Of a stretch of 64,000 nt of DNA, positions 4,246 through 58,292 are shown one piece after another. Position 1 is the first letter of the stretch. Every line of letters starts with the position of its first letter. A program made the position numbers and the translations under genes. The notes beneath the pieces were generated by a model. It worked only from the letters and a program-made list of their open reading frames with translations. It was not told where the DNA came from and ran no database searches. The stretch covers positions 280,901 through 344,900 of the forward strand of contig CAWDFL010000003.1 of NCBI GenBank assembly GCA_963801665.1. The letters run 5' to 3'. Source of the stretch: an uncultured delta proteobacterium. GTDB lineage: Bacteria; Desulfobacterota; Binatia; Binatales; Binataceae.

Positions 4246-4968
4246 TCAAATCGCGCCGGGGAGCAGGGCGCGGAGGCGGTTTGCGAGGTCGGGTGCCGAC
4301 GACTCGTGCTTGAAGTACGCGAATACGTCGGCGCCGTCATCAGCAAACTCGGCGATGCGTTTGGCCCACTCCGCGAGCCCTGCATCGTCGTAATTTTCCA
4401 TCCGCAGCCGCAGGTAAACGTATGCTGCCGTCCGCACCACCGGCGTCGCGAGCTTTTCGCTCTCGGCAATACAGAGAGCAGCCTTCGCGCCGGAGAGCGT
4501 GGCTAGGGTTGAATCGTCGAACCATGATTTATCGCGGAACTCGAACGCGACCGGCATCCGTCCGCCCAGTTGAGCGAGAAAATCCTTCAGCAGATCCGTG
4601 TCGCGCTTGAAGTTCGGCGGAAGCTGGAACAGCGTCGGCGCGACACGCTCGCCCAGCGCGCCTGCGGTCTCGATAAAGTAGTCGAGCACCTCCGCGGTGC
4701 CGCGTAATTTGGCGAAGTGAGTAATGCGCTGCGGAGCCTTGAGCGCGAAGCGGAAGTGCGCGGGGGTTTTGGCAGCCCAGCCTTCCAGCAGCTTGCGCGT
4801 CGGCAGGCGGCGGAAGGTCATGTTGATTTCAACCGTCGGCAAACGCTCGGCGTAGTACTCGAGCATCTTTGCGCCGGCCGTCTTCGGCGGATAAAATCCG
4901 CCGACCCATTCCTTGTAGCTAAACCCCGAAGTTCCGATCCGAATCGCACCAGCCTGCCGCTCGCTCAT
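4246..4968 (-). CDS. DUF72 (UPF0759) family protein
   Basis: 240-aa ORF beginning IRIGTSGFSYKEW, characteristic of DUF72. Confidence 0.8.
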   Translation of the reverse strand: MSERQAGAIRIGTSGFSYKEWVGGFYPPKTAGAKMLEYYAERLPTVEINMTFRRLPTRKLLEGWAAKTPAHFRFALKAPQRITHFAKLRGTAEVLDYFIETAGALGERVAPTLFQLPPNFKRDTDLLKDFLAQLGGRMPVAFEFRDKSWFDDSTLATLSGAKAALCIAESEKLATPVVRTAAYVYLRLRMENYDDAGLAEWAKRIAEFADDGADVFAYFKHESSAPDLANRLRALLPGAI

Positions 4969-6014: not shown

Positions 6015-6132
6015 ATTGCGACGAAAATTGTCCTTGGAGCTCGCGATCCTTTCTCGCGCGTTCAGCCGAGCCTTCTCGCGCACAGCGGAAGCGCGGAGAT
6101 AGCGCGCCTCAGGCAGGAAGCCCGACAATACT

Positions 6133-6636
6133 TCAAGTGCGCCACGCGAGTAGATCGTCCGCAAATCTGCGCATCAGGCGGGCGAGGTTCTGAAGGTCTT
6201 TCTTGCTCCAGTTAGCAAGCAGGATCGACCCGATGCGTTCACGGGCTGCGTCAAGAGCGTCCGTCATCGCGCGGCCTTTGGCCGTGATCGTCGCTTCGCG
6301 GACCCGCTGGTCGTCTTTGGATGCGCGGCGTGCGACGAGCCTTAGGCTTTCGAGCTTTGCCACCTGGCGGCTGACCGTCGTGGAATCCCGACCCACGAGA
6401 TCCGCCAGTTCGCCCACGCCGATCGGTCCCCTTCGTTCGATTCCGACCAGCAGGGGAAACAGCGCCCGGTCCAGAGAGATGCCCGCTTCCCGGATAAGCG
6501 CCGTGTCGCGTTGTGGCCGGTTCATCATCCCGAGCAAGTCGATGAGGGTATGGTGCAGGTGGCGGATCTCTTTGGTCATCCGTTCAGAGCCATTTCCGAT
6601 TGATGGTTTACTCGCCATTATGCGTATAATACACAT
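6133..6636 (-). CDS. MarR family transcriptional regulator
   Basis: Winged-helix region (LTPAQ-like GVGELADLVGRDSTTVSRQVAKLESLRLV), ~150 aa, divergent from the monooxygenase gene. Confidence 0.8.
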   Translation of the reverse strand: MCIIRIMASKPSIGNGSERMTKEIRHLHHTLIDLLGMMNRPQRDTALIREAGISLDRALFPLLVGIERRGPIGVGELADLVGRDSTTVSRQVAKLESLRLVARRASKDDQRVREATITAKGRAMTDALDAARERIGSILLANWSKKDLQNLARLMRRFADDLLAWRT

Positions 6637-33651: not shown

Positions 33652-33727
33652 TGGAGCCACCCGTCGGATTCGAACCGACGACCTGCTGATTACGAATCAG
33701 CTGCTCTACCAACTGAGCTAGGGTGGC
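33652..33727 (-). tRNA. tRNA-Thr (anticodon CGT)
   Basis: 76 nt: GCCACCC-TA-GCTC-AGTTGGTA-GAGC-A-GCTGA-TTCGTAA-TCAGC-AGGTC-GTCGG-TTCGAAT-CCGAC-GGGTGGC-T-CCA. All four stems are Watson-Crick; anticodon loop TTCGTAA; CCA encoded. Confidence 0.85.
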
Positions 33728-39518: not shown

Positions 39519-40334
39519 TCATAGTCCTGCCGTCCGACGCACATGAGCGCAGACGTGTTCGGGTTCGGGAAATATGAACATCTCCCCGATGCCGACCCTC
39601 TCCAACTCGTTCAGCAGCGACATCTTGTGCTCACGCAGAATGGGCACGTAGAGAAGAGAACTGGCCTGCTGCCAATCGAGGTCGAACTTACGCGAACCAT
39701 GCAGCGTGAACGCTCCTTGCTGCATAGCAATGCGCTCGTTGTTCCACGTTGGATTGATTGCAATCGTTCGTCGTCCGCGAGTGTGAATTCGACCATCTAG
39801 TTTGAAGTAGTTCTTGATGATGTTCGAGTCCCGTTCCAAGTCGAACACTCGTGGCGATCTCGCGTCGGTACTTTGGTTAAGCTCAATCGGATTGAGGATC
39901 ACCACCAGTCCGTCAACGTCCGGGTATTTGCAACAAGCGAAAAAAAGCGCAACCGCCGCGTTCTGGGTCCAGTCCAATAGCCGGGTGGGGAGCCCATAGT
40001 GCTGAGCAACCTGCATCCATCCTAATTCGTTATCAGGGGCTGGTGGGCGTGATAGCTTCATTTCCAAGAATCGCTTCATGTCGGCAACGAGTCCGAGTGC
40101 TCGGTCCCTTTCCTCGGGTTCGCCATATCGGAGGGCGGACGGGGCAAGCCGATAGGTCAAATCAGGATGCCCGCGAAACCAGAACAAGTTGTTTGGCTCG
40201 AGAAGAGAGTGAAACACGCCGAAAAAATCGCTCAGCGTTAAAATCAAGTCGTCCTTAAATATTGGACAATCGAGCCCGCAATTTCGATAACGATTTGATA
40301 GCTTGCGGCGATCCTGACCGGTTGTGGACGGCAT
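39519..40334 (-). CDS. FRG domain protein
   Basis: 271 aa at ~48% GC; LFWFRGHPDLTYRLAPSALR and GLPTRLLDWTQNAAVALFFA match the conserved FRG-domain core. Confidence 0.7.
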   Translation of the reverse strand: MPSTTGQDRRKLSNRYRNCGLDCPIFKDDLILTLSDFFGVFHSLLEPNNLFWFRGHPDLTYRLAPSALRYGEPEERDRALGLVADMKRFLEMKLSRPPAPDNELGWMQVAQHYGLPTRLLDWTQNAAVALFFACCKYPDVDGLVVILNPIELNQSTDARSPRVFDLERDSNIIKNYFKLDGRIHTRGRRTIAINPTWNNERIAMQQGAFTLHGSRKFDLDWQQASSLLYVPILREHKMSLLNELERVGIGEMFIFPEPEHVCAHVRRTAGL

Positions 40335-40608
40335 ATGAGATCATCCCTATGGTTTGAGTTGGTTTTCTTCACCTGAGTGTTGGCGATTCCGTCGGAATGC
40401 GTCATCTGGGAATGCGTTCTTGAAAACAACCTTTGTAAACTCTTAGTGAGTGGCCGCGAGTTTATGAGGGACAGAGCGACGCGGCAAGCAAAATAGATCG
40501 CTAAGGCTAGTGCTGGGCCGGTCGCGGATCTGCTTACGGCGCCGATCAGTGAAAAATGACGCTACCGTCGGCGCACACTTCGTATTAGCGGCACTCGAGC
40601 GGTGCCAT

Positions 40609-41934
40609 TCATGGTGCGAAACGCTCGCGCGTCCAGTTGGCCAGCACTTTCATCAGGCGCGGACGCGGATCGCCGAGATGCGCTTTCGTGCCGCCGGCGC
40701 GCATGAAGTGATCGGCGCCCTCGATGAATGCGATCGTCTTGTCGCCGGCGCCCGACGCCTCGAACTCCGCACGCACGTCGGAGAGAAAAATATCCTGGTC
40801 CGCATTCGCGCCGACGATCAGCGTCGGCGCCGTGACTTTGGGCAGGTTCACCGCGGTCTTCGCGTACGACGACAGCCCCGACCAGGTCGATAGCCACGCA
40901 TCGGGCGTGACAATCCGTCCAAGCCCGAACGCCGAGTAGTTCGCGAGGTCCGGACGCGGGGAAATGATCGATCCGACGGCGCGCTCGGACGGATCGATCG
41001 ACAGATCGCAGTAATTCGGATTCGCCTGCGTGCGATAGACGATCATGTAGGTCGGCGCCATCGCGCGGCGCGCGGCGAAATTTCTGCGCGCGGGCGGTAT
41101 CGCGGCAAAATCCTTGTCGCGCATGATCGCGCGCGAAGAACTCGCCTCATCTATATGCCGCCGCGCGATCGCGTCGATCCGCGCGCATCGCGAGCGTTGC
41201 GCCGCGCGATACCGCTCGACGAACTCCTTCGAATAGGTGCTCGCGGCGGGCGGCGTGCGAAATCCGTTAGCCTCGTCATACATGTCGAGCGCCGCGTCGG
41301 ACGCGATCGGATCCGATTCGTCAACCACCGCCGCGTCGAGGCAGCTCATCAGGACCATTCCCTGGCCCGGATGCGCCGCCAGCATGATAAATCCGTCGCA
41401 CAACGGCAGCTCGAACTTGTTCAAGTCAGGAGGACCGCCCGCCGGAGGCGCCGACACGCGCTGACCTTTCGGCGTGCGCGCCTGAGCGTCGTAATAGGAG
41501 AACAGCGATCCCCCGCCCGAGTTGCCGAGCATCACGATATGTTCGAAACCTTCTTCCTCGCGCAGAAATTTTACTCCCGCCGCGAGGTCGAGCAGCAGAT
41601 CCTCGTGCAGCATCATCGCGTCGTTGTTCAAGTAGCGCGTGTTGAGCGCGAATGCCGCGAAGCCCGCCTCGACCCAGTACGGAATCGAGTAATGGGTCGA
41701 GAAGTCGGCGCGCGGATGCGACATGATCACGACGGTGCGCGGCTTTCCCTTCGGCGGCATCCACAGCACGCCGCGCGATTTACCAAGGTCCGCGGCGTAG
41801 AGCTGAACGACGCGCTGGCGCACATCTGGATTGATGTCGCCGAAATCGATCGGGTAACGGACGGGATAATCAGCCGGCGCCTTAGGCATCGCGTTCACCT
41901 CGCTCGCTCGCCTTATAGCAGGAAAGCGGCGCAC
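40609..41934 (-). CDS. alpha/beta hydrolase family protein
   Basis: GNSGGGS nucleophile elbow; the probable start is MPKAPADY (~41889). Confidence 0.7.
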   Translation of the reverse strand: MRRFPAIRRASEVNAMPKAPADYPVRYPIDFGDINPDVRQRVVQLYAADLGKSRGVLWMPPKGKPRTVVIMSHPRADFSTHYSIPYWVEAGFAAFALNTRYLNNDAMMLHEDLLLDLAAGVKFLREEEGFEHIVMLGNSGGGSLFSYYDAQARTPKGQRVSAPPAGGPPDLNKFELPLCDGFIMLAAHPGQGMVLMSCLDAAVVDESDPIASDAALDMYDEANGFRTPPAASTYSKEFVERYRAAQRSRCARIDAIARRHIDEASSSRAIMRDKDFAAIPPARRNFAARRAMAPTYMIVYRTQANPNYCDLSIDPSERAVGSIISPRPDLANYSAFGLGRIVTPDAWLSTWSGLSSYAKTAVNLPKVTAPTLIVGANADQDIFLSDVRAEFEASGAGDKTIAFIEGADHFMRAGGTKAHLGDPRPRLMKVLANWTRERFAP

Positions 41935-41966
41935 TTTCGTCCCTCGCGGCGATATGTCAGCCTCGA

Positions 41967-43034
41967 TTGTTTCGAGGACTGATCATTTTGAAAACCGGAA
42001 TTATCGGCGCGCGAGGCGCCGGAAAGTCTGCGGTGTTCCACGCGCTCACCGGGCTCGCGCCGATTCCTGGCGCCGCCGAAGGCAAAAATCGCGGCCGCCC
42101 CGGACAGATCAAAGTCGCCGACCCGCGCCTGGATTTTCTCGAGGCCACCTACGGCTCGAAAAAGAAGGTCCCGGTCGAACTTACGATTCTCGATTTCGCG
42201 CCCAATCCAAAGGAACAGAAAGAGGGCGCCGCGCTCGATGCGAGCCTGCTACCGCTCATCCGCGATCTCGACGCGCTGCTCGTCGTCATCCCGCAGTTCG
42301 CCGCGATGCACAAGGACCTGCTGCCCGCGCTCGAGAGTATCGAGGGCGAGCTGGTCTTTGCCGATTTCGATCAGGCCGAGCGTCGTCTCGAGCGCGTGAA
42401 AAAAGATCGCAGCGCGACCGAGTTCGAGAAGACTGCGCTCGAAAAAGTCCTTAAATGGCTCGAAGAGGGCAAGCCGCTGCGCCTCATGGAGATGACGGCG
42501 CAGGAGCTCGCCGCGTTTTCGAGCTTCGGCTTTCTTTCGCGCAAGCCGGTGCTAGCGGTCGTCAACTGCGAGATGGAAGCAGCCGCCGCCGATATCACCG
42601 AGGCCGAGCGCACCGCCGTCCATGCGCGCGGAATCGAGGTCTTCAGGCTCGCCGCCTCGTTCGAGTCGGAGCTGTGGGAGCTCGAAGCCGACGGACGCAA
42701 GGAGATGCTCGCCGCGGCCGGCCTCGACGCGCCCGCGCGCGATCGATTGATCACGGCGCTCTACGCGCATCTTGGGTTGATCGCTTTCTACACCGCCGGC
42801 GAGCCGGAGGCGCACGCATGGTCGCTGCATCGCGGCGACACCGCGCTCGACGCGGCCGGCGTGATTCACAGCGACATCGCGCGCGGATTCATCCGTGCCG
42901 AAGTCGTCAGCTACGAGGATTTTGCCGCGCTCAAGTCGGATGCGAAGGTCAAGGAAGCCGGAAAGCTCCGCCTCGAAGGCCGCGACTACATCATGCGCGA
43001 CGGCGATATCATCCATATCCGCTTCAAGGTCTGA
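41967..43034 (+). CDS. ychF: YchF/Obg-family ribosome-binding ATPase-like protein (divergent)
   Basis: N-terminal P-loop (GIIGARGAGKSAVFHALTG), coiled-coil insert, C-terminal TGS domain (GFIRAEVVSYEDF...GRDYIMRDGDIIHIRF). Confidence 0.7.
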   Translation: MFRGLIILKTGIIGARGAGKSAVFHALTGLAPIPGAAEGKNRGRPGQIKVADPRLDFLEATYGSKKKVPVELTILDFAPNPKEQKEGAALDASLLPLIRDLDALLVVIPQFAAMHKDLLPALESIEGELVFADFDQAERRLERVKKDRSATEFEKTALEKVLKWLEEGKPLRLMEMTAQELAAFSSFGFLSRKPVLAVVNCEMEAAAADITEAERTAVHARGIEVFRLAASFESELWELEADGRKEMLAAAGLDAPARDRLITALYAHLGLIAFYTAGEPEAHAWSLHRGDTALDAAGVIHSDIARGFIRAEVVSYEDFAALKSDAKVKEAGKLRLEGRDYIMRDGDIIHIRFKV

Positions 43035-43094
43035 GCGCCCTCGCGCGCGAGCATTGAATTTACTCGCGCGGGTCTGATTTAAGACTGGTACAGA

Positions 43095-45257
43095 ATGCCA
43101 GTCAGGGCGCCGCCTATCGGCGCCCGCCGGCGAGAGCTTTCCGGAGCGCAAATGAACGAGCAAGTCACCCGCCAGATTCTCTGGAACATCCCGATCCCAT
43201 TCATCGTCCTGATGTACTCGCTGCTCGTGGTGCTGATCGCCGCGTACGTATGGGCGGGGCTCGGATGGTACCGCAGGATTCGGCTCGGCGTCGCCGACAA
43301 TCGCCTCGACCAGATTCCGCGCCGCGTGTTTCTTTCGCTGCGCGACGCGCTCGGGCAGGGCTACGTCACCCGCGAGTCCTGGGGATGGATGCATTACTCG
43401 TTCTACGTCGGCTTCGTCGGGCTGCTGATCGGCACGACGATCGTCGCGATCAACAGCGACGTGCGCGACCTGGTCGAGCTCTTCGGGCTCCAGCTCTATT
43501 TCTATTACGGCGATTTCTACCTGTTCTTCAAAGCCGCGATGGACACCTTTTTCCTGATCCTGATCGCGGGAATTTTGGCCGAAGGCGCGCGCCGCCGCTT
43601 GCGCAAGCCGTCGGTGCTGAATCAGCCTCCCGCCGATAAGGTCAACGACAACTTGGAGAATCAGCTCGGCTACTGGTTTCCGATGACGATGCTGGTGCTG
43701 GTCGCGTTGACCGGCCTGATGCTCGAGGGTGCGCGCATCAACGCGACTCATCCGAAGTTCACCGAATGGGCTTACATCGGCCGCACCATCGGCCATATCG
43801 AGGGCGCGCTCGGCGCTGGCGCAACCTATCATCGCTACCTGTGGCTGACGCATCTGATTCTCGTTTATGTGCTCCTCGCCTGTTTCGCGTTCACCAAGCT
43901 GCGCCACCTAGTGTTCGGGCCGGTGAACCTGTTTTTCCGCAATCTCGGGCCGCGCGGCCGCCTCGCTCCGATCAAGGATTTCGAGACCGCCGAGACCTTC
44001 GGCGTCTCGCAGGTCGAGCAATACACCTGGAAGCAGTTGCTCGATATGTCGTCGTGCCTCGAATGCGGGCGATGCACTATCAACTGCCCGACGGTCAACA
44101 CCGGCAAGACGCTGAATCCGAAATTTCTCGTGATCGAACAGCGCGAGCATCTGCTGCAGAAGGCTCCGTTCCTGCTCGCCGCCGAAGCCGCGAAAAACAG
44201 CGGCGACGGCGCGGAGCCTCCGGTCTGGGACGGTCCCGACATGATCACGCAAGTCGCGACCGAAGCCGCGGTCTGGGGATGCACGACCTGCGGATGGTGC
44301 GAGGAGGGATGCCCGGTCGGTATCGAGCATATCCAGCGCATCGTTGACATGCGCCGCTACGAAGTCCTGATGGAAAGCAAATTTCCGCAGGAAGCGACGA
44401 GCGCGTTCAAGGGAATCGAGAACCAGGGCAATCCATGGGGACTCGCGGCCGAGAAGCGCGCCGAATGGGCCGCGGGCCTGGGCATCCCGGAGATGGCGGA
44501 GGTCGAGGATCCCGCCGATCTCGACGTGCTCTACTGGGTCGGATGCGCCGGTTCGTTCGATGAGCGCAACCAGAAAGTGTCGCGCGCGTTCTCGGCGCTG
44601 ATGCGGCAGGCGGGAGTCAAATTCGGAATCCTGGGAAAAGAGGAAACCTGCACCGGAGATCCCGCGCGCAGATTGGGCAATGAGTATTTGTACGCTACCG
44701 TCGCGGCGCAGAATGTCGAGACGCTAAATCGCTACAAGCCGCGGCGAATAGTCACTCAGTGCCCGCACTGCTTTCACAACCTGAAGAATGAGTATCCAGA
44801 CTTTGGCGGCAATTATACAGTTCTGCACGAAGCCGAATTTCTGGCCGAGCTGGTTCGTGCGGGACGCCTCAAACCCAAGGAGATTTTGAAAGCACGCGTC
44901 ACCTATCACGATCCCTGTTACATGGCGCGGCACAACCGCGAATGGGACGGCGCGCGCGAGATTCTCCGCGCGGTTCCCGGTACGGAAGTAACCGACGTCG
45001 ATCAATCGAAGAACCGGACATTCTGCTGCGGCGCGGGCGGCGGATGCATGTGGAAAGAAGAGCATGAGGGAACCCGCATCAATCAGAAGCGCCTCGATCA
45101 GCTAAGCGAAGCCAAGCCCGAGTGCGTCGCCGTAGGATGCCCTTTCTGCATGACGATGATCGAGGACGCGGTAAAATCGCGCTCGCTGGAAGACACGATG
45201 CGCGTGCGCGATCTGTCCGAAATCATGGCCGAAGCCACCGGCGCGCTGGAGAAGTAA
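43095..45257 (+). CDS. membrane-anchored Fe-S oxidoreductase (HdrD/GlpC/DsrK-like: TM domain + 2x[4Fe-4S] + two CCG domains)
   Basis: ~5 TM helices N-terminal; CLECGRCTINCP and CTTCGWCEEGCP ferredoxin motifs; C-terminal Cys-rich CCG motifs (YHDPCYMARH, FCCGAGGG). The start is probably MNEQV (~43152). Confidence 0.8.
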   Translation: MPVRAPPIGARRRELSGAQMNEQVTRQILWNIPIPFIVLMYSLLVVLIAAYVWAGLGWYRRIRLGVADNRLDQIPRRVFLSLRDALGQGYVTRESWGWMHYSFYVGFVGLLIGTTIVAINSDVRDLVELFGLQLYFYYGDFYLFFKAAMDTFFLILIAGILAEGARRRLRKPSVLNQPPADKVNDNLENQLGYWFPMTMLVLVALTGLMLEGARINATHPKFTEWAYIGRTIGHIEGALGAGATYHRYLWLTHLILVYVLLACFAFTKLRHLVFGPVNLFFRNLGPRGRLAPIKDFETAETFGVSQVEQYTWKQLLDMSSCLECGRCTINCPTVNTGKTLNPKFLVIEQREHLLQKAPFLLAAEAAKNSGDGAEPPVWDGPDMITQVATEAAVWGCTTCGWCEEGCPVGIEHIQRIVDMRRYEVLMESKFPQEATSAFKGIENQGNPWGLAAEKRAEWAAGLGIPEMAEVEDPADLDVLYWVGCAGSFDERNQKVSRAFSALMRQAGVKFGILGKEETCTGDPARRLGNEYLYATVAAQNVETLNRYKPRRIVTQCPHCFHNLKNEYPDFGGNYTVLHEAEFLAELVRAGRLKPKEILKARVTYHDPCYMARHNREWDGAREILRAVPGTEVTDVDQSKNRTFCCGAGGGCMWKEEHEGTRINQKRLDQLSEAKPECVAVGCPFCMTMIEDAVKSRSLEDTMRVRDLSEIMAEATGALEK

Positions 45258-46006: not shown

Positions 46007-46967
46007 CTATTTGAGATCGCGCAGGAACTCGAGGATCGCGCGATTCACTTCGGACGGCTTTTCCTGCTGCGTCCAATGCCCCGACCCTTTTATCAGCACG
46101 GTCTTGCGCAGGTTCGGCACCCACGTGTTCATTCCTTCGGCCATCTCGGGACGCAGCACCACGTCGAGCTCCGCCGTGATCATCAGCGCGGGCGCATCGA
46201 CGCGCTGCTCGAACGCGGCGCTCTCTTCCCAGTTGCGATCGAGGTTGCGGTACCAGTTGAGCCCGCCGCGGAATCCGGTCTTCTTGAACCCGGCGACGAA
46301 CACCTGGAAATCCTCATCGGTCAGGAACGATCCGTGCGGACCGTCGGCGAGCCGGTCGAGGATTCCGCCGCCCGCCGGTCCGAACACGCCGGGCACGGTC
46401 GCGCGCAGCGCGGCCGGATCGATCTTGGGCGGATCCTGGTAGAAGCCGCGCAGCGTGCGCGCGACGTCGCGCTCGAGCTCCGCCTCCGCGACTCCGGGAG
46501 TCTGGAAATACAGGATGTAGTGAAAATTGCCGGCCGCCATCGCGGTCATCATCTCGGTCGGTTTCATCGGGCCGCGCGGCAGAAACGGAGTGTTGATCCC
46601 GATCACGCGCTCGATGCGCGTGGGATGCATCATCGCGGCGTTCCACGCGGTCATCCCGCCCCAGTCGTGGCCGACGATCACGCACTTTGGGATCCTGAGC
46701 GCGTCGAGCATGCCGATTATGTCGCCGACGATCTGCTTCTGCGTGTATGCCTCGATCGCCGCCGGACAATCGGTGTCACCGTAGCCGCGCTGGTCGGGCG
46801 CGATCGCGCGGAAGCCCGCGTCCGCCAGGGCTTTCAGTTGATGCCGCCATGAGTACCACAGCTCCGGAAAGCCGTGGCACATGACGACCGGAAATCCGGC
46901 GCCCGCCTCGGCGACGTGCATGCGAATGCCGTTGGTGTTTACGAAGTGATGCTTGATCTCGGTCATC
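46007..46967 (-). CDS. epoxide hydrolase-like alpha/beta hydrolase
   Basis: MTEIKHHFVNTNGIRMHVAEAGAGFPVVMCHGFPELWYSWRHQ...GHDWGG; the upstream 100-codon extension in the ORF track reads through a MITE and is not coding. Confidence 0.8.
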
Positions 46968-47112
46968 GTATGATCCTCCGCGCGGTCCAGGTTGATTGCG
47001 GCCGCGAGCGGCGCGCATTTGCGACGTGCGGACATCATGCGGAAATCACGCGCGGCATGGAAGCCGCCGCGAAGAGCGCATGAGCGCGATCGATCTGACT
47101 TGCTGGCGCTGT

Positions 47113-47478
47113 TTCCGCGACTGTCATTCCCGCGCGTGGCTGCCGCGCGAGAGCCTGTCCTGAGCAAGGCCGAAGGGAGTCCCGAACGAAAGGCCATAGC
47201 ATGAGATGCGGACTGGGAGCATGCCCGCCTCGGGATTCCTCGCCTTGGGCTCGGAATGACGATCGGGGGCTCGGCTGAGACTACGATACTCATTCACCAA
47301 ACCCACATCCGTCATTTCGACCCCTTCGGCGTTGCTCAGGGCAGGCTCCGAGAGAAATCCCGGGGCGTTCATGCACGCATCCGCGAGTTGGCTGAAGGCC
47401 GAGGGCCGAGCACGGAATTTCCTTCGGCGTTGCTCAGGACAGGCTCTCGCGCGCGGCAGCCACGCGCGCGGGAATGAC
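47113..47478. repeat. MITE-like element, family 'gtcattcccgcgcgtggctgccgcgcg' (copy 1, full length)
   Basis: ~45-bp terminal inverted repeats (gtcattcccgcgcgtggctgccgcgcgagagcctgtcctgagcaa ... ttgctcaggacaggctctcgcgcgcggcagccacgcgcgcgggaatgac) plus an internal core shared with copy 2. Confidence 0.65.
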
Positions 47479-47588
47479 AGTCAACTTTGGATCGATTTCA
47501 AACCGCAGGTTTGACATCCGAACGCGCGCCGCCCTATGCTCTTCTGTTAATCCACAATATACTTTTTGTAGGCCGGAGGTACTTTCAC

Positions 47589-48239
47589 ATGAGCCGTGAT
47601 TTTGAATTCAAGGCGTTGCTGCGCGCGTATCGCAGCGGAATTATCGGAGAACAGACGTTCGAGGCCGAGGTTGCGGCGCTCGAGAAATCCGGAACCGGGA
47701 TGAACGGTAACGGCTCGGGCGGCTTCCACGCTTTCGGCAAGAGCTACAAGAGCGAGCGCGCCGCGGTGGTGAGCTTCCTCGACAAAGTTCGCGCGGGCGA
47801 GGCCAACGGCGGAGAGGCGTTCGCCGCATGGGCGGAAGTCTGCACCACCGATTGCATCCGCTCCGGAATCCGCATGATCGCCGAGCGCGAGGCCTATCAT
47901 TCGCGCGTCTTCGCGCAGCGCCTGGCGGAGCTTGGCGGTGAGCAGCGCGCGACCGTGACCGAAGAGGGTCGCAAGTTCACCGCATACCTGGGCGACCGCC
48001 GCGTCCCCGATACCGAGAAGCTGCTCAAGTTTGTCGAGCGCGTGGGCAAGCCCGAAGACGCGATCAAGCCGATCTGCGAATTCGCGGCCCTGCTCAAAGA
48101 GGACGTGGGAACCAAAGAAGCGCTGCGGCTGTTCGCGGAAGACGAGCTTTCGACCGCGAAGTGGCTGTACGAATCCTGCGCCGCGCTCAACGCGCCAGCA
48201 TCAGCGGCCAAATCGGACGAGCGCCGCGCCTCGATGTAA
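47589..48239 (+). CDS. hypothetical protein (helical; possible ferritin-like half-motif ExxH)
   Basis: GGAGG RBS then MSRDFEFKALLRAYRSG...; 216 aa. Lies between the two MITE copies. Confidence 0.5.
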   Translation: MSRDFEFKALLRAYRSGIIGEQTFEAEVAALEKSGTGMNGNGSGGFHAFGKSYKSERAAVVSFLDKVRAGEANGGEAFAAWAEVCTTDCIRSGIRMIAEREAYHSRVFAQRLAELGGEQRATVTEEGRKFTAYLGDRRVPDTEKLLKFVERVGKPEDAIKPICEFAALLKEDVGTKEALRLFAEDELSTAKWLYESCAALNAPASAAKSDERRASM

Positions 48240-48338
48240 TCGTTCCTGTCTCGACTGAAATGACGAGCGGGGTCCGCGAGGACCCCGCTCTTTTCTTTCT
48301 CAGCTCGCACGCGGCGGAGCGTGCGCGATCGGGGCGGC

Positions 48339-49145
48339 CTAATGCGCCGCTGACGGTGCCGCTGCGGGAGCGCCCTTGGGCGCGCCCATCATCCCGTGCT
48401 CACCCGGCTTCGGGAGCTCGCGCTTGGTGTATCCGGCCGGAACGGTGAACTGGTCAGCGGAGATTTTCTGCACCGCGATTTTCGTGACCACTGTCTGTGT
48501 TGTGATCGGCTTGCGATTCGCCATCATCTGCTGCAGCTTGGCCTGCTGATCGGCGGACAGTCCCGGGATATTGATCTTGTTCATCTTCATGGTCGCGTCC
48601 GAGGCGAGCGGGATTCCGTGGGGAACGTCGCCGGTCGGCTGCGCACCGGTCGCCTTGAACTTCTCCATGTAGGCTTTCATGAAGGCGTCATATTCCTTGC
48701 TGCCGGGCGCGGTGGTCGAATAGCAATCGACCATCGACACGTCGCCGCCCATCGAGGTAGTGGTCGCCGAATAATCCTTGCACTCGTAGCCGGCGATTTT
48801 GCGCGAGGTTGATTCCTTCTTGAAGTTCATCGCTCCGGCCGCCCGCGCCATCATCTGCGCCATCGGACCGGTCGGCGGAAACGGCAACTGCACGTAGGTC
48901 TTCTGCGTCGGTTCAAGGTAGAACATCTGGCCGCCATCGAGATCGATAATGATCGCGTGGTCGGAGCCCTCGATGCGTTCCTTGTTGCCTTGTACCGAAA
49001 TCGTCTGCACGCGCTGCTGGTTTCCCCCCCCCTGCGGCGATCCCTGGCGCGACTCCGACTGCGTGATCACCACGCCTGCGAGCGCGGGAATTGCTGCGGC
49101 CATTGTCATTGCGACGCCGGCCACGATGGCGATTGCCTTGTTCAT
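48339..49145 (-). CDS. secreted hypothetical protein (DUF4412-like), contains a C9/G9 homopolymer in the CDS
   Basis: MNKAIAIVAGVAMTMAAAIPALAG signal peptide. The 639-aa ORF in the track is an RG-rich read-through; the real gene is the last 268 codons, with an ATGA overlap with the upstream membrane protein gene. Confidence 0.6.
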   Translation of the reverse strand: MNKAIAIVAGVAMTMAAAIPALAGVVITQSESRQGSPQGGGNQQRVQTISVQGNKERIEGSDHAIIIDLDGGQMFYLEPTQKTYVQLPFPPTGPMAQMMARAAGAMNFKKESTSRKIAGYECKDYSATTTSMGGDVSMVDCYSTTAPGSKEYDAFMKAYMEKFKATGAQPTGDVPHGIPLASDATMKMNKINIPGLSADQQAKLQQMMANRKPITTQTVVTKIAVQKISADQFTVPAGYTKRELPKPGEHGMMGAPKGAPAAAPSAAH

Positions 49146-50194
49146 AACGTTTGCTCTCCTTGAGCCTTCTGCATCTCGAGCACTTTTGCGCCGCGAGCCG
49201 ACAGCGCGTGCTCTGCGCCGTTCGCCCCTTCCACGATCAGCCGATGTAGCATCAAACTGACCAGCCCGAATAGCACCCACACCATTTCCTTGATTCTTCT
49301 TAGAAACCCGATCGCAAAGCCAACTCCCGCCGGATATCCGATCAGCGCCAGGATCAGCGCCTTGCCGCCCTCCTGGCTCACCAGCTTGGCGGGGATCAGA
49401 AACGTCGCGCGCTCGATCAGCAAGCCCACTCCCTCGACCAGCAGCGCCACCCGCACCGTCGCCACCTGATGCAGCAGCTTCAGCAGGATAAAGATCTCGA
49501 CCGGCCCCATGCTCCACGCGACGAAGTAGCACAGGCACGAGAGTATCAGGCGTATGCGATGGCGCGCGTAGAATTCGAGCAGGATCGAGTCGGCTTCGTC
49601 GGCCGACTCCTTGATATCGTAGCGGCTCAAGTCCGTGAAATCGAATTTCGCCGCCGCGCGCCACAGGTACGAAAACGGCCGCTTGGTCTGCACGTAAAAG
49701 AAACCGAGCGCCAGCGCGATCGCGATCGCGAGTCCGCCCGCGATCGGCCACAGCAGCCGATGCGCCGCCGGGATCATCTGGATCGAGATCAAGAGCGCGG
49801 CGACGACGAACATGATCTGCCCGATCGCCTCGGCGAGCGACGCGACCACCACCGTCGCGAGGCCCAGCGGCATCCGGAGTTTGCGCCGCACCATCAGCGC
49901 CATGACGAATTGGCCGCCAAGCTGCGCCGAGGGAGTGACGTAGTCGATCGCCTCGCCCGCGATTCGCGCGGCGAACAGCTCGCCAAGTCCGAGCGAGGGC
50001 GGATAGTCGGCAATCGTGACTCGCCATCCCAGCGTGTTCATGATCCGCGAGACCGCTTCCAGCGCGATCGTCAGCGCGAGGCCCCATCCCGCAAGCTTGA
50101 CGTAGCCGAGCACCTCGCGGGTGCCGAAATGCGACAGAAACCAGAAGTAAAACCCAACAGCGAGAACGATCAGGATGGATTCGACGCGGCGCAT
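49142..50194 (-). CDS. MprF/LPG-synthase transmembrane-domain (UPF0104, flippase-like) family membrane protein
   Basis: 350 aa, ~8 TM helices, sequence typical of TIGR00374-type membrane proteins. Confidence 0.65.
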   Translation of the reverse strand: MRRVESILIVLAVGFYFWFLSHFGTREVLGYVKLAGWGLALTIALEAVSRIMNTLGWRVTIADYPPSLGLGELFAARIAGEAIDYVTPSAQLGGQFVMALMVRRKLRMPLGLATVVVASLAEAIGQIMFVVAALLISIQMIPAAHRLLWPIAGGLAIAIALALGFFYVQTKRPFSYLWRAAAKFDFTDLSRYDIKESADEADSILLEFYARHRIRLILSCLCYFVAWSMGPVEIFILLKLLHQVATVRVALLVEGVGLLIERATFLIPAKLVSQEGGKALILALIGYPAGVGFAIGFLRRIKEMVWVLFGLVSLMLHRLIVEGANGAEHALSARGAKVLEMQKAQGEQTL

Positions 50195-50324
50195 CGCAAA
50201 ACGGTGACAAGCCGCACGGCGCGGCGCAGTCGCTGCATTGTTTCAGCCGAACCCCCAACGCGCAACCGGGGCAAAATCTTTGGTAGTGGGCCGGTTCGAA
50301 ACTTGCCCTGTCAGCGATGCCGAT

Positions 50325-50632
50325 TTGTCATTTCCGCGCGCGTGGCTGCCGCGCGCGAGGAATCCCGGGCGAAGGTCTGCTGCACGTGGACGTAGCTCAA
50401 AGCACGGCCGTCTCGGGATTCCTCGCCTACGGCTCGGAATGACGGTTGAGAGCTCGGTGGGGGCTACGATACTCATGCACCCGGCCCGCATCCGTCATTT
50501 CGACCGAAGGGAGAAATCCCGAGACGGCCGTGCTCTGAGCTACGTCCACGTGCACTTCCCTCTCGTACGGGATTCCTCGCGCGGCAGCCGGAGCCTGCCC
50601 TGAGCCTGCCGAAGGGCGCGGGAATGACACCG
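50325..50632. repeat. MITE-like element, same family as 47113..47478 (copy 2, same orientation)
   Basis: TIRs tgtcatttccgcgcgcgtggctgccgcgcgcgagg... / ...cgcgcggcagccggagcctgccctgagcctgccgaagggcgcgggaatgaca. The internal ~95-bp core (ctcgggattcctcgcct..ggctcggaatgacg...ctacgatactcat...catccgtcatttcgacc) is ~85% identical to copy 1. Confidence 0.6.
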
Positions 50633-50712
50633 GAAAACGAGCGCAACTGTGAAATCCGTAGCCGATCATTGTCACCTAACAAGCGTTAGATTTTTTGCCA
50701 GATTTGTTCATG

Positions 50713-50729
50713 GCTGAACTGTTCAGCCT
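50713..50729. promoter_or_regulatory. 17-bp perfect palindrome GGCTGAAC-T-GTTCAGCC within a ~440-bp AT-richer leader upstream of the amidohydrolase-amidase operon
   Basis: Seen directly; a TATAAT hexamer (~50868) and a TTGACA hexamer (~51034) lie in the same leader. Confidence 0.3.
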
Positions 50730-51080
50730 TATCTTCCCGCCCGCTTCGTGCAAAATAGATCAAATGGAACCAAATCCCCGACTTCCGATCGTCCGCCCGC
50801 TCCCGGCGCGAAACGGCTCCCAGCCCTTCACCGCTTCAGCGCGCGCTAGCTTAATGATTCGCATTCTGCTATAATGAGAAGCCGAGGTCGTAGAAAATGC
50901 GAAAAACGGTTTCAAACCCATCATCCGTGTGAAATTCTTGAGCTTTTCCAAAGAGTATTCGCAACGACCGGATCAAAAATCGCCTGAACGAACCCACCGC
51001 AGATACACAGTTTTAAAATACGGAGTTCTGATTGACAGCTTCGCCCCGAGGCGGCGACAATCCTGCCCGGTGCAATAGCA

Positions 51081-52214
51081 ATGTCTTTAGCCGGATTCAG
51101 AATTATCGATGCCGACGGGCACGTCACCGAGCCTGCCTCGCTCTACACCACGCACATCGACCCGAAGTTCCGCGCCGCCGCCGACGCGATGCTCACGCGC
51201 ACTGGCGCCGGCAACCTCGGTATCGTACCCGCTATCCATCCGAAGTGGCGCAGCGCCGAGCGTCCGCTGGGCGAGCGCGACGAGGTTCCGGGGCTCGGCA
51301 AATTTCCCTCGGGCAAGAATCATCCGCTCGCCTCTCCGACCGGCGGCCTCGATCCGAACGAGCGCATCGCCGACATGGACAAGGAAGGAATCGACGTCGC
51401 CGTCTGCTTCGCGACCGTCGCGACCTCCGTGTGCGGCGTCGCCGATCTCGCGATGGAAGCGGCGCTCGCGCGTGCGTACAACCGATGGATCGGCGAGTAC
51501 TGCTCGGCCGCGCCCGCGCGCATCAAGGCGGTCGGCATCGTTCCGCAACGCACGATGGAGACCTGTGTCGCCGAGGTCGAGTACCTCGCGCGCGAGCCGT
51601 GGGCGGTCGGAATCATGACCTTTGGAAATCTCGACGGGATGCTCGCCGACCATCCGTATTTCGATCCGTTCTATCGCGCCGCGGCCGCGAACGATCTGCC
51701 GCTATGCTTTCACGGCGGCACCGATCGTCCGCCGTTCGCGCCCGGCCGCGAGGATGTCGGCAACAACATGTTCCTGATGCATCTGACCGGCCACGTCTGG
51801 CATCAGATGCGCGCGATGGGCGCGGCGATCGGCGGTGGCCTGCTCGAGCGCCATCCGAAGCTGATGCTCGGATTCTTCGAGGGCGGACTCTCGTGGGTCC
51901 CCTGGTGGGCCGAGCGGATGGACGGGCACTACAAGCACTTCGCGCGCCACACTCCGCATCTTTCGCGCAAGCCGAGCGAGCACATGCGCGGCCCGCGATG
52001 CTTCTACACCTTCGACGCCGACGAGGATCTGCTTCCCGAAGCGATGCGGATGATCGGCGTCGAGCGCGTGATGTGGGCGTCTGACTATCCGCATTTCGAT
52101 GCGGAATTCCCCGACGCCGCCGAGCTGGTAGTCAACAACTCGCGCATCGACGCGGCCGAAAAGCGCGCGATCCTGTGCGACAACGCGCTCAAGTTTTTTT
52201 CGAGGATCAAATAG
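51081..52214 (+). CDS. amidohydrolase family protein (amidohydrolase_2)
   Basis: IIDADGHVTEP N-terminal metal-binding motif; ...ASDYPHFD C-terminal motif; 377 aa. Confidence 0.8.
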   Translation: MSLAGFRIIDADGHVTEPASLYTTHIDPKFRAAADAMLTRTGAGNLGIVPAIHPKWRSAERPLGERDEVPGLGKFPSGKNHPLASPTGGLDPNERIADMDKEGIDVAVCFATVATSVCGVADLAMEAALARAYNRWIGEYCSAAPARIKAVGIVPQRTMETCVAEVEYLAREPWAVGIMTFGNLDGMLADHPYFDPFYRAAAANDLPLCFHGGTDRPPFAPGREDVGNNMFLMHLTGHVWHQMRAMGAAIGGGLLERHPKLMLGFFEGGLSWVPWWAERMDGHYKHFARHTPHLSRKPSEHMRGPRCFYTFDADEDLLPEAMRMIGVERVMWASDYPHFDAEFPDAAELVVNNSRIDAAEKRAILCDNALKFFSRIK

Positions 52215-58016: not shown

Positions 58017-58250
58017 CGTAACTGCTCCATTGTTCCACGCGCATCGGCGCGAAGTCCGTGCCGCTCGCGTAAGGGTTGTCGTTCGGACGACAAATGGAAT
58101 TCAGTTACTTCCGCACACCGTTGGCCTCTTGTGGTGAGATGACCTGGAATCTAACGCCGCGTCCCGAGCGATGCAATCCGTTTTTCACTCTCCCGCCGGT
58201 TGAGGGTGCTGCTCTGCATCCGCATGATCAGCTCTTGCACGATCCGAATC

Positions 58251-58292
58251 CGGGATTCCTCTCGCGGCGGCCACGCGCGGGAATGACAAATG
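58251..58292. repeat. solo terminal-repeat fragment of the 47113/50325 MITE family
   Basis: ggattcctctcgcggcggccacgcgcgggaatgaca matches the right TIR of copies 1 and 2. Confidence 0.45.

Follow-up and report, generated by a model that had tools for sequence, protein, structure and literature searches.

The 64,000-nucleotide stretch of DNA analyzed here (the window: positions 280,901 to 344,900 of contig CAWDFL010000003.1, assembly GCA_963801665.1, from an uncultured delta proteobacterium of the Binataceae; G+C content 60%) carries two composite repeats, of 358 bp (copy 1, 47122-47479) and 304 bp (copy 2, 50326-50629), on either side of three genes, and a solo hairpin at 58251-58288. An earlier note, made from the sequence alone, had recognized both repeats, and our analysis corrects their coordinates only slightly. 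We consider it probable that they are decayed copies of a non-autonomous transposon, a MITE (miniature inverted-repeat transposable element), specific to Candidatus Binataceae and possessing ends of the type found in the insertion sequence (IS) IS1 and a hairpin core that resembles repetitive extragenic palindromic (REP) sequences. The genes around the repeats are the following; Pfam confirmed the assignments made before.

46007-46966, minus strand: Abhydrolase_1 gene (Pfam)
47589-48239, plus strand: gene for a 216-aa protein with a weak rubrerythrin-like match (Pfam)
48339-49145, minus strand: DUF4412 gene (Pfam)
49142-50194, minus strand: LPG_synthase_TM gene (Pfam)
51081-52214, plus strand: Amidohydro_2 gene (Pfam)

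Both composite repeats are palindromic, and the outer ~40 nt of each are inverted copies of one sequence, TGTCATTCCCGCGCG(CG)TGGCTGCCGCGCG... Using a repeat finder, we found the inverted arms of copy 1 to match over 18 nt at 100%, over 23 nt at 96% and over 41 nt at 90% identity, and the two copies to have in common a core of 105 nt (47218-47322 and 50401-50505) at 83% identity. Alignment of both strands of both copies demonstrated that each is nearly its own reverse complement except for a central asymmetric stretch. Both copies are built from four hairpin units whose orientation alternates, A(+), B(-), C(+) and D(-). The asymmetric cores of the two copies point the same way while their outer arms point opposite ways; the same orientation that had been claimed for the copies thus applies to the core and not to the arms. 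The pattern GTCATTYC-N9-39-GRAATCCCG has six matches in the window, all of them within copy 1, copy 2 and the solo hairpin; since 100 shuffles gave an expectation of 0, these matches are not due to chance. Where GTCATT occurs elsewhere in the window, it belongs to ordinary coding sequence.

Altogether, 172 such units were found in the window and in 90 related loci (designated here by L numbers). They follow a common layout: a (C/T)GTC head, ATTCC or ATTTC, the two arms of an inner stem on either side of a loop, GGAAT or GAAAT, and a CCCG tail. The head is TGTC in 112 and CGTC in 54 units, and CCG is present in the tail of 135. Type A units (38 or 42 nt) read TGTCATTCC-CGCGCG-TGGCYGC-CGCGCG-A-GGAAT-CCCG, type B units (31 nt) CGTCATTCC-GA-GCC-NNN-GGC-GA-GGAAT-CCCG, and type C units (29 nt) CGTCATTTC-GA-CC-GAA-GG-GA-GAAAT-CCCG; a fourth type, G, starts with GTCATTCTCGCGCG. 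The CG-repeat arms of type A co-vary in length, with 59 cases of (3,3) and 14 of (4,4) against about nine asymmetric ones, the 3' arm being unconstrained by the search pattern. In type B, the GCC/GGC stem is kept, with one GCG/CGC double change, while the triloop is free to vary. Tandem G.A mismatches occur on the GTCATT strand only. Nested in four of the nine window units is a 26-nt module (module X, GAGCCTGYCCTGAGC-N4-5-CGAAGG), which occupies three recurrent positions within units of other genomes, in both orientations. Blocks without module X measure about 275 bp and each module adds about 26 nt, which accounts for the difference in length between copies 1 and 2. The hairpin units of the window are as follows.

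47122-47184, plus strand: copy 1 hairpin A, with TGTC head and CGCGCG arms; module X nested at 47151-47176
47231-47261, minus strand: copy 1 hairpin B, CGTCATTCC-GA-GCC-CAA-GGC-GA-GGAAT-CCCG
47262-47309, plus strand: copy 1 asymmetric core spacer between the head-to-head units B and C, which copy 2 and other genomes have conserved (...CTACGATACTCAT...)
47310-47362, plus strand: copy 1 hairpin C, CGTCATTTC...GAAAT-CCCG; module X reversed at 47322-47348
47413-47479, minus strand: copy 1 hairpin D, the inverted partner of A; module X at 47420-47446
50326-50629, plus strand: copy 2 four-hairpin block, with A at 50326-50367 (+), B at 50414-50444 (-), core spacer at 50445-50492, C at 50493-50521 (+) and D at 50568-50629 (-), the latter carrying module X at 50591-50615
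58251-58288, minus strand: solo hairpin of type A, TGTCATTCCCGCGCGTGGCCGCCGCGAGAGGAATCCCG, 38 nt

The site at 58.25 kb, which the earlier note had described as a third, solo end of the element, is real; it is not an end but a whole single unit of the hairpin family, and it occupies a typical REP position just downstream of a gene. It is situated 33 nt downstream of the stop codon of a pstA-like gene and lies on the same strand as both neighboring genes; no terminal repeat (see below) was found near 58251-58288. In the region 58240-58288, the CCCG tail of the solo is followed by GATTC, and GGAATC-CCG-GATTCC could form a small hairpin competing with the main stem. A CCCGGATYC extension was seen after most solos in other genomes.

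As single-stranded DNA, each block is predicted to fold into one long hairpin (-123.6 kcal/mol, z -11 for copy 1; -126.7 kcal/mol, z -15.6 for copy 2). Searching the whole window with Rfam 15 at the gathering threshold yielded tRNA only and no match in the repeats, and in the region 46900-51100, with E values up to 1 admitted, only a chance match to the L20 leader (E 0.77) appeared. The tRNA gene, at 33655-33727 on the minus strand, is the sole Rfam match at the gathering threshold in the 64 kb. One weak promoter-like match (9/12) lies inside copy 2; no terminator-like site was found inside either element.

To assess the distribution of the family, we scanned a 25-nt pattern of the type A (outer) hairpin against one genome per prokaryotic species. 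At least 90 stretches matched, all from Candidatus Binataceae or from uncultured deltaproteobacterial or proteobacterial metagenome-assembled genomes (MAGs), and the 80 stretches listed come from at least 20 assemblies. The element is common among the Binataceae, a family of soil bacteria. The closest homologues of the window proteins are likewise from Binataceae. Among the related loci, type A has 101 matches, about half of which are solos. Ten further complete A-B-C-D blocks of 273-333 bp keep the same head spacing (0/113/163/275) at unrelated sites, and the one in L156 (82.6% identity over 357 nt) is closer to copy 1 than copy 2 is. This dispersal of hairpin blocks over other genomes at unrelated sites excludes a local segmental duplication as their source, an origin that the earlier note had itself raised as the case that would speak against a MITE. 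The spacer of the B-C head-to-head dimer is conserved (83%), and the A-B and C-D spacers are variable. On viral contigs, the generic unit pattern gave, among the matches listed, single chance-like ones only, which are uninformative. Two pairs of inverted solo hairpins bracket single, accessory-looking genes: the pair at L132 1793-2885 encloses the gene for a 301-aa HNH endonuclease in which Pfam (HNH_repeat, HNH) finds three homing-endonuclease-associated repeats, and the pair at L175 4196-5843 a gene for a 480-aa protein without a Pfam match.

The ~45-bp sequences that had been taken for the terminal inverted repeats of the copies turned out to be internal REP-like hairpins. At none of 12 blocks did we detect a target duplication directly beside TGTCATT...AATGACA, and the outer ends were therefore sought further out. 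Recurrent short motifs 15-60 nt outside the blocks led to an 18-nt terminal inverted repeat, GGTAGTGGGTCAGTTTGA (GGTAGTG(G/T)(G/C)TCAGTTTGR), which lies outside the coordinates originally given for the copies and is mostly lost in the window. In intact members it measures 18-22 nt, GGTAGTG(G/T)(G/C)TCAGTTTGA(AAT), and is located 20-60 nt beyond the outer hairpins; in Binataceae loci it bounds elements of 156, 205-220 and 393 bp. Perfect 8-bp target duplications (8/8) flank the elements in L190 (GGGCAGGC) and L201 (CGTCACTG); L142, which contains a complete four-hairpin element of 393 bp, and L153 and L196 have duplications matching at 7/8 positions. When metagenomes were scanned with the 18-mer, the matches listed contained at least 47 terminal-repeat pairs; among these 47, 22 possess perfect 8-bp duplications and nine more possess duplications of 7/8. 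The elements bounded by the 47 pairs range in size from 68 bp to 3.25 kb. In other lineages, GTCATT hairpins are missing from the majority of the MITEs that have these ends.

Four mini-elements of 68-90 bp on metagenome contigs (L304 842-909, L305 1968-2036, L298 372-461 and L312 856-945) contain hardly anything besides their two 18-nt terminal repeats, and every one of the four elements has a perfect 8-bp target duplication; to our knowledge, they rank among the smallest MITE-like elements. A four-hairpin block without IS1-type ends, at L144 ~1640-2100, lies between direct copies of ~58 nt from a terminator-like hairpin (AAGAAGCGGCGCTCGCG...CGATTTCGTTTC); one side has some 33 nt of additional sequence. 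Such a flanking duplication is unlike the product of an 8-bp DDE transposition.

Mobility of the family is further indicated by filled and empty sites, one of which lies in the window outside the two copies.

41917-41925: empty target site AGCAGGAAA, single copy; the orthologous site in L156 (~90% identical) is filled

L156, which is about 90% identical to window positions 40105-45255, contains a 440-bp four-hairpin element (1823-2271) flanked by two copies of the 9-mer AGCAGGAAA. Since this 9-mer is present only once at 41917-41925, upstream of a ychF-like gene in a divergent intergenic region, we regard the window site as empty. Conversely, the sites of copies 1 and 2 are empty in L214/L215, and that of copy 1 is also empty in L339. 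With its many copies elsewhere, its filled and empty sites and the target duplications of its members, the family is, as had been proposed, a dispersed, non-coding mobile family of the MITE kind. The target duplications themselves, for which a search had been suggested, are found in the relatives of the window copies and at neither copy itself.

A candidate partner for these MITEs emerged from the metagenome scan. Two elements with the same ends enclose transposases, L221 160-3163 (duplication CAAATCCG) and L268 81-3333 (duplication GGCCCGGC), both with duplications of 8/8; the transposases have 283 aa and 298 aa, respectively, and each stop codon lies inside the terminal repeat. Against the Pfam model DDE_Tnp_IS1 (PF03400; cut-off 24.1), the L268 transposase scores 41.3 bits and the other one 25.2 bits, and the transposase is 37.5% identical to E. 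coli InsB over 40 aa. More than 8000 homologues exist, many of which, some from Binataceae and Binatus MAGs among them, are named IS1 family transposase in their source records. One homologue, which occurs on at least 24 contigs, resides within a Binataceae MAG in a 3.18-kb element (L337 2056-5235) with the same ends and a GCTTTTC(A) duplication. Hence MITEs of 156-393 bp and transposase-encoding elements of 3.0-3.25 kb possess the same 18-nt GGTAGTGGGTCAGTTTGA ends and the same 8-bp duplication. Inward of about 21 nt, MITEs and IS show no relationship to each other. The GGTAGTG end fits the signature GGnnnTG, which is that of IS1 and also of IS6/IS26 (PMC6807381); we confirmed this signature on the ends of E. 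coli IS1A, GGTAATG and GGTGATG. The common ends and common duplication length suggest that the IS1-like transposase would move the MITEs in trans. In 658 kb of Binataceae loci we found no autonomous copy, only two 31-aa remnants of the transposase C-terminus in L196. These remnants (4381-4473 and 6064-6156) are 48-52% identical to residues 240-270 of the L221 protein and are situated in a locus rich in these MITEs; they are consistent with some members having arisen from the IS by deletion.

The autonomous elements, of about 3 kb, are large for members of the IS1 family, and they carry passenger genes. Those of L221 and L268 encode HTH-XRE/Peptidase_M78 (ImmA/IrrE-like) proteins plus unknown open reading frames (ORFs), and the Binataceae copy in L337 carries DUF3467 and Sel1-like ORFs.

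Comparison of orthologous sites indicates how members of the family decay. At one such site, in genomes about 89-92% identical, L174 possesses a 305-bp four-hairpin block, L208 a 128-bp A...D doublet and L141 a 65-bp collapsed remnant; at another, the four-hairpin block of L139 corresponds to a 39-bp head-loop-head palindrome remnant in L131. These series demonstrate that internal deletion turns large blocks into small REP-like forms. With respect to the orientation of the core relative to the arms, copy 1, L142, L156, L165 and L179 exhibit one arrangement and copy 2, L147 and L163 the other. Since both arrangements occur among the copies, the center of the block can flip between the inverted outer hairpins.

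The state of the two window copies can be read from their arms.

47095-47121, plus strand: copy 1 left arm, linker CTGAC...CTGTTTCCGCGAC, which in intact relatives separates the left terminal repeat from the hairpin block; terminal repeat absent
47480-47503, plus strand: copy 1 right arm, an 18-nt linker followed by TCAAAC (47498-47503), the 6 innermost nt of the right terminal inverted repeat
50282-50299, plus strand: copy 2 left terminal inverted repeat, GGTAGTGGGCCGGTTCGA, 15/18 to the family consensus; fits IS1-type GGnnnTG and is the only window match of such quality
50300-50325, plus strand: copy 2 short linker of 26 nt, from terminal repeat to hairpin block
50630-50674, plus strand: copy 2 right arm, a 45-nt linker of the long type (...GCAACTGTGAAATCC...), followed by no right terminal repeat; a different dispersed repeat begins at 50675

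In copy 1, only the 6 nt TCAAAC of one terminal repeat are left and no target duplication was detected; the outer 12 nt of its right repeat, with any target duplication, are missing. The sequence GATTTCAAAC at this end (47494-47503) is also found just inside the terminal repeat of the autonomous elements, and native sequence common to the window and L339, CGCAGGTTTGACA, resumes at 47504, directly after the copy. On the left, the linker begins with CTGAC exactly where the left terminal repeat would end. This left boundary is approximate. L339 and L214 match the window up to GCGCGATCGAT, and the linkers of L142 and L186 start with CTGAC directly after the terminal repeat. Copy 2 has lost its right terminal repeat and shows no target duplication. 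On the basis of the homology of their blocks and arms to L142 and L156, we classify both copies as decayed derivatives; since they are truncated and have lost terminal repeats, they are most likely immobile relics.

Several candidate ends were rejected. The right half of a possible duplication at copy 1, GATCGATCT/GATCGATTT, lies inside the element's own linker, as judged from the arms of L142, L146 and L156. For the right terminal repeat of copy 2, a candidate at 50769-50786 matches the degenerate pattern at 13/18 positions, has no duplication and lies inside another repeat, and one at 50912-50929 matches by eye at 9/18. A likeness between the long linker CACTGTTGCA and the IS26 end GGCACTGTTGCAAA was considered and dropped since the motif is internal to the true terminal repeat.

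The repeat directly after copy 2 (50675-50810) is dispersed as well and unrelated to the MITE. It comprises a terminator-like hairpin (CCTAACAAGCGTTAG), a T-run and then a palindrome, GGCTGAAC-T-GTTCAGCC, and may represent an operator together with a gene for a small RNA or peptide. Stretches of about 60-137 nt are found again in L159, L164, L151, L134, L207 and L211-L213, with the copies in L211-L213 being inverted in the same neighborhood downstream of LPG_synthase_TM; 24-31 nt around the palindrome recur in L132 (twice), L126 (twice) and L129.

The earlier note had regarded the 2.8-kb segment between the copies as a likely variable cassette. The order of the genes for the 216-aa protein, DUF4412 and LPG_synthase_TM is kept in six of six related loci as far as the contigs reach, with neighbors that are the same or different, and two of these six relatives are element-free at both copy sites. 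One of them, L214, possesses the same hydrolase and amidohydrolase flanks, with intergenic regions of 218 and ~155 bp compared to 622 and 886 bp in the window. L339 (93% protein identity) is without copy 1, and the closest relative, L216 (89.6% DNA identity), contains a glyoxalase gene in place of copy 2 plus about 400 bp. The 216-aa protein, whose gene adjoins copy 1, has 744 homologues. In the related loci, we found no sign that the elements delete, invert or move the three-gene block, and the cassette was accordingly abandoned; copies 1 and 2 are late, lineage-specific insertions beside a conserved gene block, in divergent intergenic regions. The spacer between the LPG_synthase_TM and amidohydrolase genes (window 50271-51031; L216 2737-3402; L214 8582-8737) is a hotspot that amounts to about 155 bp in L214, contains the glyoxalase gene in L216 and other genes in L211, and in the window holds the MITE plus about 400 bp of AT-richer sequence.

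Copy 1 had also been placed in the promoter region of the hydrolase gene. Conserved sequence upstream of that gene reaches to ~47065, and on the other side of the copy lies the following site:

47511-47540, plus strand: promoter-like site TTGACA-18-TATGCT of the 216-aa gene, 8 nt beyond copy 1, outside the element and conserved in relatives without it

Copy 1 is actually positioned between two divergent core promoter regions and in neither of them.

An intact member of the family consists of 18-22-nt terminal repeats flanked by an 8-bp duplication, short linkers and a non-coding core of one, two or four CGTC-type hairpins in alternating orientation, with the four-hairpin form measuring about 390-440 bp. 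Most likely, such elements would be moved in trans by the IS1-like DDE transposase of the ~3-kb elements. After insertion, the long palindromic core is unstable; in related genomes it collapses via internal deletion and its center flips. In the window, one terminal repeat is gone from copy 2 and nearly both from copy 1. The window copies appear to be selfish DNA; any influence on DNA structure or on how neighboring promoters are spaced would be a side effect.

Several observations weigh against this interpretation. A terminal repeat lies within 150 nt of only 26 of 90 blocks in Binataceae loci, and both ends are present at only 11; this low share reflects either fast decay of the ends or many hairpins spreading alone, and most hairpin units may spread or persist independently of IS1-type ends. 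IS1 is the best NCBIfam model for the transposases, yet the scores of 72 and 64 bits fall below the cut-off of 100, and weak matches to IS6/IS240 models were also obtained. No IS1-like transposase is encoded within the 64-kb window. Finally, neither window copy has two terminal repeats or a duplication, and their mode of arrival is deduced via homology to intact relatives.

The strongest competing explanation, which we nevertheless regard as unlikely, is that the blocks are pure REP clusters, or bacterial interspersed mosaic elements (BIMEs): the hairpins would be mobile via an enzyme like the REP-associated tyrosine transposases (RAYTs) or via another enzyme, the blocks would be mosaics, and the IS1-type ends incidental, with hairpins inserting into MITEs or MITEs landing beside hairpins. 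The units indeed fit every sequence feature of CGTC-tagged REPs, and solos occur just downstream of genes. The restriction of G.A mismatches to the GTCATT strand suggests a single-stranded functional form, and the co-varying arm lengths of type A units, the 64 of 90 blocks without a terminal repeat within 150 nt and the lack of such hairpins in the majority of MITEs that share the terminal repeat but belong to other lineages likewise favor this explanation. However, terminal repeats are about tenfold enriched near blocks over a background of 1.7% per segment, and whole two- and four-hairpin elements lie precisely between terminal repeats with 8-bp duplications (L142, L153, L190 and L201). Moreover, orthologous sites show that deletion in larger forms yields small ones lacking terminal repeats, and no Y1 transposase was seen between the inverted unit pairs (L132, the HNH endonuclease; L175, the 480-aa ORF), no whole-genome RAYT search having been made. 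Duplications of 8 bp are what DDE transposition typically leaves, in contrast to Y1/HUH single-strand transposition.

Even less probable are structured elements of benefit to the host, that is, a structured RNA, an insulator or terminator between divergent genes, or an array bound by nucleoid proteins. The very stable predicted folding of both blocks and the location of all three polymorphic insertions examined in divergent intergenic regions would agree with such a function, but the blocks match no Rfam family, are not expected to be transcribed because they lie upstream of the promoters found, are absent from the orthologous sites of close relatives, and decay quickly by deletion, which is the behavior of dispensable DNA. 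That a local segmental duplication formed a composite, recombination-prone cassette able to delete, invert and move three genes is scarcely credible: similar cores in the same orientation do lie 3.2 kb apart, but the family extends across at least 20 assemblies, copy 1 is closer to the L156 element than to copy 2, the outer arms of the copies are oppositely oriented, and both the conserved gene order, with two relatives element-free, and the abundance of homologues of the 216-aa protein are at odds with a mobile segment.

An IS1-type MITE with a REP-like core would provide a concrete vehicle for one REP-like class: the ends are of the IS1 type, the duplication measures 8 bp, and the same bacterial family contains a candidate transposase. 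How long palindromic MITEs decay to REP-like solos, as seen at orthologous sites, is relevant to the long-standing question of how REPs originate. Quite tentatively, one might go further and suppose that CGTC-tagged REPs, a class of repeats widespread in bacteria, spread in this lineage as cargo of IS1-family MITEs, that bare solos and doublets are what remains after collapse and end decay, and, as a corollary, that module X is a separate tiny hairpin colonizing the loops and stems of units. For annotation, the blocks account for numerous spurious small ORFs and contig breaks in MAGs of Binataceae, and in the window the suggestion of a mobile cassette is removed from three conserved genes.

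Among known systems, the Binataceae elements resemble IS1-family MITEs (ends GGnnnTG, 8-9-bp duplications) in being short, non-coding and dispersed in many copies, in having ends identical to those of a transposase-encoding partner, and in their fixed 8-bp duplication, their filled and empty sites and their size series from 68 bp to 3.25 kb. They differ from them in that the interior is a REP-like hairpin array and no IS deletion remnant; the transposase, moreover, is only distantly IS1-like and the window copies have lost ends. The hairpin units themselves are closest to the CGTC-tagged REPs (Di Nocera et al. 2013, PMC3733652), to which Neisseria dRS3 / CGTC-1 belongs and which are defined as short imperfect palindromes with an unpaired CGTC/TGTC head, an A-T-first stem and a short C-rich tail (PMC3733652). 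The Binataceae units possess this head, an ATTCC...GGAAT A-T-first stem, a C-rich tail and small variable loops; they form head-to-head dimers with a conserved spacer and tail-to-tail arrangements with variable spacers, and they are extragenic, high in copy number and without an adjacent dedicated transposase, none being known for CGTC repeats (PMC3733652). Some CGTC dimers of H. neapolitanus have been reported inside longer palindromes (PMC3733652), which resemble the terminal repeats around the Binataceae hairpins. In contrast to the published repeats, the Binataceae stems measure 10-13 bp instead of the reported 8-9 bp and contain a bulged A or tandem G.A, CCCG takes the place of CCA as the tail, the phylum is not on the published list, and a sizeable fraction lies inside IS1-type ends with duplications, which has not been described for CGTC repeats.

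With BIMEs and REPINs (REP doublets), the Binataceae blocks have in common alternating hairpins at regular spacing, the folding of the array into one long hairpin, and solos beside doublets; unlike these RAYT-linked systems, their head is not GTAG and the documented movement leaves 8-bp duplications. The Correia elements and neisserial intergenic mosaic elements (NIMEs) with dRS3 of Neisseria are likewise small, palindromic and intergenic, with ATTCCC...GGGAAT-type hairpins, a mosaic build and variable length; Correia elements duplicate TA and measure about 100-155 bp. Sequence and host phylum differ, and the likeness of the Binataceae family to dRS3/NIME mosaics is one in form only.

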